In this document: in pieces, positions 29,750 through 29,871 of the stretch
Layout of the letters: each line of letters opens with the position of its first letter
How positions within the stretch are numbered: the first letter of the stretch is position 1
Assembly: GCA_945877035.1 (NCBI GenBank)
Contig: CAMCQH010000001.1
Location: 64,258-128,257, forward strand
DNA from: an uncultured Clostridium sp.
GTDB lineage: Bacteria > Bacillota > Clostridia > TANB77 > CAG-508
Direction of reading: 5' to 3'
Length of the DNA stretch: 64,000 nucleotides
Made by a program: the position numbers and the translations under genes
The notes under the pieces: generated by a model
Database searches by the model: none
Told to the model about the DNA's origin: nothing
The model's input: the letters and a program-made list of their open reading frames with translations, nothing else

Positions 29750-29871
29750 GTGAAGTAGATGTCGGTGAAATGGATGTCGGACATTTCAATGTCCTAACTT
29801 CTGACCTCCGACATCTGACCTCTAAACTCCAACCTCTAACATCCGACTTCCGACCTCTGACCTCCGACTTC
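29750..29871. repeat. Heptad-array repeat element, copy A1 (11 tandem YRACNTC heptads plus complementary arm)
   Basis: The run 29795-29871 reads taacttc tgacctc cgacatc tgacctc taaactc caacctc taacatc cgacttc cgacctc tgacctc cgacttc. Left arm gtgaagtaGATGTCGgtgaaatgGATGTCGgacatttcaatgtcc is complementary to the heptads. Confidence 0.85.

Follow-up and report, generated by a model that had tools for sequence, protein, structure and literature searches.

The GARGTYR repeats found between genes of an uncultured Clostridium sp. are probably a lineage-specific family of non-coding, interspersed hairpin repeats that is built of heptanucleotide SSRs, is resized by slippage and is carried as a co-transcribed intercistronic stem-loop and dispensable passenger. 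Throughout, the window denotes the whole 64,000-nt stretch of contig CAMCQH010000001.1 that was analysed. The main evidence comes from close relatives: among strains with 98–99% identical DNA, the elements are gained, lost, replaced and resized in 7-nt steps. Since the corresponding operons of near-identical strains do without it, the element is no required regulator, and a fixed regulator of any kind, considered when the earlier note on this sequence was followed up, finds no support. Conversely, the strict polarity of the elements described below is not accounted for by a purely neutral model.

Anatomy and placement of the repeats

When the window was scanned mechanically for tandem runs of three or more heptads, allowing one mismatch per unit against GARGTYR, four arrays were returned and no more, with 11, 6, 5 and 5 units (Table 1), compared to 0.02 arrays in shuffled sequence. 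Heptad dimers gave 23 matches vs 0.40 expected, every one within the four array sites, and TRF independently reported arrays of period 7, 14 or 21 at the same places. The positions and unit numbers given in the earlier note are thereby confirmed. The arrays are exactly periodic, and their G, A, G and T positions are conserved. Still, the units vary, and many read GAAGT, GATGT or GAGTT instead of GAGG.

Copies 1–3 contain, in addition, an inverted arm composed of 15-nt units (GTGAARTRGAKGTYR). The pattern of these units, GTGAARTRGANGTYR, combines the 8-mer GTGAARTR with one heptad (GAKGTYR), in the orientation opposite to that of the array. Six matches were found in the window vs 0.16 expected, all at copies 1–3, with a TRF period of 15 at 29750-29780 and 32389-32443. 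The partner arm had previously been read as one sequence resembling the end of 16S rRNA; the string in question, CTACTTCACCAACCTCCATTTCAC, is indeed found in copy 3, but the arm is itself a repeat array of 8-mer plus heptad and not a single unique sequence. The full element is a quasi-palindrome, in which a GARGTYR array opposes an inverted 15-nt array across a short AT-rich loop, and the heptads of the 15-mers, one in each, pair with alternate heptads of the array. At ca. 45% GC, the elements form GC-rich islands in a window of 27% GC.

Copies 2 and 3 share 94% identity over 36 nt of their arms, a result that favours common descent or conversion over separate origins at each site. As the counts of 7- and 15-nt units differ, the copies cannot be aligned outside the repeats. 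Within the arm, GTGAA is better conserved between loci and between species than pairing alone requires; judged from the sequence, this could reflect a sequence-specific partner. The co-variation of arm and array could stem from a templated origin as well as from selection. A remnant of a coding repeat, a possibility raised by the earlier note, was ruled out: with a 7-nt period and TA- or TG-type units, a stop arises in every frame within three repeats.

Table 1 Repeat copies and adjoining genes in the window, with the strand on which the array reads GARGTYR
Feature	Position	Strand	GARGTYR strand	Composition or context
Copy 1, ctp/pgsA spacer	29750-29871	−	−	two 15-nt arm units (29750-29779), 11 heptads (29795-29871)
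Copy 2, M23b/M23a spacer	32388-32496	−	−	four 15-nt arm units (32389-32448), loop, 6 heptads (32455-32496)
Copy 3, pilB/pilT spacer	40219-40289	−	+	5 heptads (40219-40253), two arm units (40253-40282)
Copy 4, solo array	57011-57061	+	−	5 YRACNTC heptads (57011-57045), then A15 (57047-57061)
pgsA (CDP-alcohol phosphatidyltransferase)	29131-29727	−		Pfam; downstream of copy 1
ctp (S41 C-terminal processing protease)	29872-31080	−		Pfam; upstream of copy 1
M23a (PcsB-like M23 peptidase)	31178-32371	−		Pfam; downstream of copy 2
M23b (PcsB-like M23 peptidase)	32496-33710	−		Pfam; upstream of copy 2, after ftsE and ftsX
pilT-like ATPase	39085-40188	−		Pfam; downstream of copy 3
pilB-like ATPase	40293-41939	−		Pfam; upstream of copy 3
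HIGH_NTase1 (tmcAL-like) gene	57079-58311	+		Pfam; downstream of copy 4

All four arrays are intergenic and lie between Pfam-confirmed genes, which are mostly encoded on the minus strand in the regions examined. The operon order is ftsE–ftsX–M23b–copy 2–M23a–ctp–copy 1–pgsA, then pilB–copy 3–pilT. The gene order prpC–prkC(PASTA)–rsgA–rpe indicates Bacillota, in agreement with a 90%-identity FtsE cluster whose members include "Clostridium sp. CAG:440" and a "Clostridia bacterium" MAG. Copies 1–3 fill the spacers of co-directional core genes from the stop codon onwards: they start at or within 1 base of the upstream stop and end 15–40 nt before the next start codon, so that the RBS lies outside the repeat. 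The earlier placement of the copies inside operons and next to stop codons was thus correct for these three. In copy 1, where a small central hairpin occupies 29780-29794, the heptads abut the ctp stop codon and the mRNA reads stop, GARGTYR array, loop, reverse-complement arm, A-rich stretch, RBS. The last heptad of copy 2 overlaps the TAG stop codon of M23b. In copy 3 the module order is reversed relative to transcription, and the terminal GAGGTTA adjoins the pilB stop codon. Copy 4, with neither arm nor hairpin, lies immediately 5' of the RBS of the tmcAL-like gene and is probably within its 5' UTR.

The window holds several other repeats and mobile sequences. A second hairpin family, made of TGTCCC...GGGACA palindromes (e.g. 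TGTCCCAAAGAGAACCGTCCCCTTTGGGACA), occurs at gene ends (16665-16814, 23525-23635, 35485-35522 and 58300-58393), and an intrinsic terminator is predicted at one of its copies (35490-35520). A MITE-like insertion of ca. 300 nt (37392-37691), with perfect 41-nt inverted repeats at 37435-37475 and 37606-37646, is missing from the 98.7%-identical strains L002–L004. Another dispersed element is seen as a 204-nt direct repeat of 94% identity (10689-10892 and 51998-52201), each copy with an internal inverted repeat of ca. 40–45 nt. Three tandem 11-nt units, (A)ATGTAATATT, recur at two intergenic sites (47034-47066 and 56025-56058) and appear operator- or iteron-like. Finally, the left end of the window (ca. 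1-8000, corresponding to L394 195-8050) carries mobile-element genes, an HTH protein and a Mob_Pre relaxase, with a tyrosine integrase just beyond it; several assemblies break there, their contigs ending at the mobile element.

Variation among strains and occurrence elsewhere

The same loci were fetched from other assemblies via strain-identical anchor proteins (PilT, FtsX and an RNase H-domain protein). Queries with pgsA and with the protein at the end of the window, aimed at sequence beyond it, gave no match. The close relatives compared all come from metagenome assemblies, and the DNA of contigs L002–L004 and L132–L136 is 98–99% identical to the window. At the ctp/pgsA site, L132–L134 have no element and a spacer of only 14 nt, TAAGAGAGGTGTTAAAAATG, with the heptad-like AGAGGTG at the RBS; the window strain is ca. 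133 nt longer. At the M23b/M23a site, where the window strain has 6 heptads, L132 has one extra GAGGTTA and L136 one unit fewer, and these one-heptad gains and losses are located inside homogeneous runs. The element is absent from this site in L133 and L134, in which M23b ends in ...CTACATCCATTTCAC-TAA, i.e. with one 15-mer of arm type joined to its reading frame; from its sequence, this looks like a deletion scar. At the pilB/pilT site of L002–L004 and L006 the whole spacer has been exchanged for 153 nt of unrelated sequence that contain another hairpin, showing that one intergenic spacer hosts different hairpin elements depending on the strain. This alternative spacer (L002 5848-6000) has an inverted repeat of its own (TTTGGGAAAACTTTTATTT...AAATAAAAGTGTTCCCAAA).

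The array of copy 4 was present in every strain compared, its position being conserved and its sequence fluid. Across L385–L392 the scan gave 4–7 units, and both the unit sequence and the A-run (A15, A11, A7 or none) differ. One metagenome scaffold (L384, ca. 2700-2800) has an N-run assembly gap exactly at this heptad array. Over the same 20.9-kb region, the window strain carries three elements, L132 one and L133 none. Differences in heptad number between strains, which the earlier note had proposed to look for, were therefore found at the M23 and tmcAL sites, and its description of a modular family with variable repeat number is borne out. No clean case of a target-site duplication or a precise empty site was seen at the compared sites, though TA is common at both ends: the empty ctp/pgsA site differs by 8 additional nt, a remnant persists at the M23 site, and at the pil site the spacer has been replaced.

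Further copies were found at other loci in related organism(s). Scanning JGI metagenomes with the arm pattern gave nine loci, seven of them from one assembly (26–30% GC), and these seven share the architecture of 1–6 arm units, a short AT-rich loop and 3–13 heptads. One of the contigs, L148, represents a related species and is syntenic with window positions 34901-48255 (DNA 83–95% identical; PilT 91% and PilB 88% identical). Its pilB/pilT spacer retains an element with different unit numbers, and retention at this level of DNA identity could indicate some selective value at that site. The other sites in the related assembly are mreB/mreC, rpoD/mscS, rbfA/nrnA, nrnA/truB, tpiA/gpmI, a position beside secY, and rplE/rpsH in the spc operon. 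Overall, the composite 15-nt arm with its GTGAARTR 8-mer recurs at no fewer than 12 unrelated loci, spread over at least two related genomes. From four copies per 64 kb in the window and 2–5 per 8–31 kb contig in the relative, we infer a family of dozens to hundreds of copies per genome. A Pfam scan of 26 distinct flanking ORFs, from the window and the related loci, found neither a transposase nor a RAYT beside any copy. As a separate observation, six tandem 15-nt units, GTGAAGTRGACGTCA, on a 66% GC metagenome contig of an unrelated organism (L149 1640-1724) match the arm consensus; with one frame open on each strand, they may represent chance or a coding repeat.

Relative to transcription the two modules occur in either order, the array preceding the 15-mer arm in copies 1 and 2 of the window as well as in L141, L142 and L144, and following it in window copy 3, L143 (twice), L146 and L148. 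Every element nevertheless has its purine-rich arm first, whichever strand is read. As a consequence, the mRNA of every insertion runs from stop through GAGG-rich arm, loop, CCUC-rich arm and A-rich stretch to RBS. Because a quasi-palindrome that is always purine-first gives similar mRNAs in both orientations, the mixed module order is compatible with a role at the RNA level.

Heptad arrays of this kind extend well beyond the lineage. Four perfect tandem GARGTYR units occur at more than 119 loci in GTDB species genomes, the matches listed including Verrucomicrobiota, Acidobacteriota, Planctomycetota, Bacteroidota, Chloroflexota, Proteobacteria, Cyanobacteria (Okeania, Moorena and Plectonema) and also Clostridia. 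GARGTYR arrays were likewise found on at least 120 viral contigs, compared to 28, 56 and 38 viral loci for composition-matched permuted heptads. Heptamer arrays are accordingly common in general, with the GARGTYR class at least 2–4 times commoner than its permutations. Among the matches listed, roughly one array in four is accompanied by an inverted partner array no more than 120 nt away, in the layout (GARGTYR)n, a variable central stretch of ca. 5–85 nt, and (YRACYTC)m (e.g. L022 3199-3305, L110 248-329 and L241 5126-5185). Such pairs were seen in Acidobacteriota, Planctomycetota, Chloroflexota, Bacteroidota, Proteobacteria, Bacillota and viral contigs, and unpaired arrays also in Verrucomicrobiota and Cyanobacteria. 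All 48 paired arrays among the matches listed are purine-first (20:0 in genomes, L007–L125, and 28:0 in viral contigs, L150–L269), and it should be noted that the permuted control units show a like polarity (2:0, 14:0 and 7:1).

It is conceivable, albeit doubtful, that the window elements represent, in one lineage, a class of "polar heptad hairpins" that spans phyla and is as yet undescribed. If so, the uniform polarity would imply one of two causes. The first is a sequence-specific machinery common to these organisms, e.g. a binding protein or transposase of wide distribution; the second is a general rule, physical or selective, for example co-transcriptional capture of the C-rich arm that avoids Rho loading, or a slippage bias of the replicase. 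If confirmed, the polarity rule and its recurrence across phyla would offer a handle on why 7-nt units dominate prokaryotic long SSRs.

Predicted folding and competing explanations

Copies 1–3 fold with −26 to −40 kcal/mol (z −1.9 to −4.8) on both strands, the predicted structures being imperfect hairpins of 30–45 bp on either strand; the long imperfect hairpin proposed earlier is thus reproduced for these copies. For copy 4 no fold is predicted (z about +1). In the predicted fold of copy 1, about six loop-proximal heptads pair with the arm and the five distal heptads protrude. Seven of nine family members at other loci fold with z between −2.3 and −3.7. When whole spacers were folded, the main stem dominated and the downstream RBS remained unpaired. 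An intrinsic terminator or promoter was dismissed, as neither was called at any element and the stem is followed by A-rich mRNA in place of a U-tract. A known RNA family was likewise dismissed: no element gave an Rfam 15 match at gathering score, and the sole match at an element in a permissive Rfam scan was Y_RNA at E = 1.1, i.e. chance level. Elsewhere in the window, a T-box leader was identified at Rfam gathering score (94.2 bits; 18048-18293, minus strand).

The earlier note had interpreted the two arms as mimics of SD and anti-SD sequences. In such a device the purine-rich arm, with GAGG or GGAGG every 7 or 15 nt, would hold or re-capture terminating ribosomes and so tune translational coupling, and the opened stem would let the CCUCC-rich arm mask the downstream RBS. 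The invariant order of mRNA segments fits this description, and the base of the stem abuts the stop codon, so that a terminating ribosome would open it. Moreover, minimum-energy folds computed without the 5' arm join CCUCC to the downstream SD in all three armed copies. These alternative pairings are, however, weak (−9 to −12 kcal/mol) and do not surpass those of shuffled sequences (z −0.8 to −1.3), and the full fold leaves the RBS free; masking of the RBS by the CCUCC arm is not supported. The resemblance of CCUCC to 16S rRNA is a trivial result of its complementarity to GGAGG. The numerous GAAGT, GATGT and GAGTT units, together with the arrays of other phyla, which are often pure (GAAGTCA)n without GGAGG, are difficult to reconcile with a dedicated mimic, as is copy 4, whose CCUC strand falls in the leader and for which the folding predicts no structure. 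Considering also the near-identical strains in which the same operons lack the element, we regard an SD/anti-SD device as unlikely.

The regular spacing has also suggested an array of binding sites for an oligomeric protein, and we hold this to be very unlikely. At the RNA level the ligand would be HutP- or TRAP-like, recognising NAG at a 7-nt period, or Csp-like; at the DNA level the array would act as a series of omega/RHH-type heptad operators or as a centromere-like site. HutP binds UAG-N4-UAG-N4-UAG, and the omega repressor binds arrays of 7-bp WATCACW units in direct and inverted orientation. Exact periodicity, the conserved heptad positions and a GTGAA core that is kept in the 15-mer across loci and species speak for such a protein, and the polarity of the heptad class is the same in many phyla, as would be expected of oriented protein sites. 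The NAG spacing itself matches HutP and TRAP sites, with (GAGGUUA)n giving UAG-N4-UAG. Still, only TA-type units yield UAG, most units giving CAG or CGG, and the context is that of cell-envelope and pilus operons with no hut or trp leader and no antiterminator, so that the HutP-type ligand put forward earlier is not borne out. In general, the sites lie in unrelated housekeeping operons and not in promoters, antiterminators or a common regulon, the array is mostly sequestered in the predicted stem, no candidate binding protein is encoded beside any copy, and both presence and copy number vary among near-identical strains. The SD/anti-SD mimic and the HutP-type array are both unsupported and improbable.

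At the other extreme, each element could be a local by-product without dispersal or function, formed by in-place slippage of a GAGGT-like seed (e.g. the downstream SD) followed by template-switch inversion. Such a seed is at hand in the AGAGGTG of the empty ctp/pgsA site, heptamer SSRs of many unit sequences are common, as the viral loci of the control patterns illustrate, and the solo array of copy 4 combines a fixed position with fluid sequence. Against this, the composite arm with GTGAARTR occurs at many unrelated loci, in at least two related genomes, and the arms of copies 2 and 3 are nearly identical; a separate origin of the arm at each site is very unlikely. We therefore consider a purely local origin quite improbable.

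Relation to known repeats and biological meaning

As kinds, intergenic heptamer SSRs and hairpin interspersed repeats are known already. With a tandem excess, a non-coding location and whole-unit length polymorphism, the element is a prokaryotic heptanucleotide long SSR by definition. Heptanucleotide SSRs are over-represented in prokaryotes, convergent inverted pairs included (PMC4679880, PMC4692102), and those described comprise the cyanobacterial STRR, TAACTGA in Beggiatoaceae, Cyanobacteria and Bacteroidetes (PMC4679880) and GGGAATC in Xanthomonas (PMC4692102). The present repeats share with them the tandem 7-nt units, the mostly intergenic location, often near start codons, the strain-variable length and the occasional convergent inverted pairing. 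They differ in a unit, GARGTYR, that is outside the described ones, in a distinct 15-nt-repeat arm and hairpin module, and in their low-GC gut Bacillota host.

By analogy, the closest mechanistic precedent is the (ATCTTTC)n repeat in the 5'-UTR of Haemophilus influenzae hmw1A/hmw2A, which pairs with a non-repeat arm to form an RNase III-cleaved hairpin that sets expression, the hairpin itself being required for changes in repeat number (PMC12721329). Common to both are a variable repeat number and an SSR arm whose pairing partner is complementary but not identical, the pairing being predicted only in the elements studied here. The hmw hairpin is a single 5'-UTR locus of a phase-variable adhesin, whereas the present elements form many intercistronic copies in housekeeping operons.

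In terms of architecture, the comparison with BOX made in the earlier note is apt, the elements being analogous to BOX or REP elements. BOX of Streptococcus pneumoniae, boxA-(boxB)n-boxC, is a modular intergenic repeat with variable internal modules and stable stem-loops; it is co-transcribed and scattered in a low-GC Gram-positive genome, and its mobility is suspected but unproven. The likeness lies in the variable internal module number and the hairpin potential and is an analogy only: boxA, boxB and boxC measure about 59, 45 and 50 nt (45–59 nt) and are seemingly of unrelated sequence, whereas the modules here, at 7 and 15 nt, are of SSR size and change by single units between strains. REP, BIME and REPIN sequences are short, GC-richer imperfect palindromes located just behind stop codons within operons, with no fixed orientation and with strain-variable presence. 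REP elements are known stabilisers of mRNA 3' ends, and RAYT (Y1) transposases are their cognates. A short, imperfect extragenic palindrome in both orientations is found here as well, but the stems consist of tandem sub-repeats and not of one unique palindrome, and no RAYT was seen among the 26 flanking ORFs scanned. As regards a MITE, the observations are mixed: inverted arrays are present and TA is common at both ends, but none of the compared loci shows a clean empty site. An integron attC-like site, another type of hairpin located after stop codons, was rejected: the heptads misfit RYYYAAC/GTTRRRY, and on either side lie genes of core operons instead of cassettes.

Returning to the interpretation as hairpin repeats built of heptanucleotide SSRs, the unit number would change by slipped-strand mispairing, as in other prokaryotic heptanucleotide SSRs, and copies would spread or be homogenised via hairpin or ssDNA transposition, or via gene conversion. 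Mobility is a candidate property, as neither a flanking transposase nor a target-site duplication or clean empty site was found at the loci examined. Located inside operons and without a terminator, the element would be co-transcribed with the operon. The intercistronic double-stranded stem may then be a site of RNase III-type processing, an obstacle to exonucleases or both, which would uncouple the stability of upstream and downstream cistrons; such an effect on mRNA processing and stability is suggested by analogy. Copy 4, being unarmed, would act, if at all, as a 5' leader of variable length. Since the elements are dispensable, they most likely persist as passengers that are selfish or close to neutral and whose influence on expression is incidental and tunable, and not as dedicated SD/anti-SD or protein-titration devices.

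Within the searchable literature, no description was found of the GARGTYR unit, the 7-nt/15-nt composite module or the polarity rule, nor of strain-resolved repeat dynamics in core operons of uncultured gut Bacillota; a search for the unit strings returned eukaryotic primers only and none in bacteria. The elements thus add an anatomised and strain-resolved case, from uncultured gut Bacillota, to the poorly understood heptanucleotide repeats of prokaryotes. On the practical side, they break or gap short-read assemblies, yet serve as high-resolution strain markers. The repeats reside in the most conserved operons (ftsEX-M23-ctp-pgsA, mreBC, the spc operon and glycolysis), and this placement could give rise to heritable differences between strains in the stoichiometry of housekeeping proteins.
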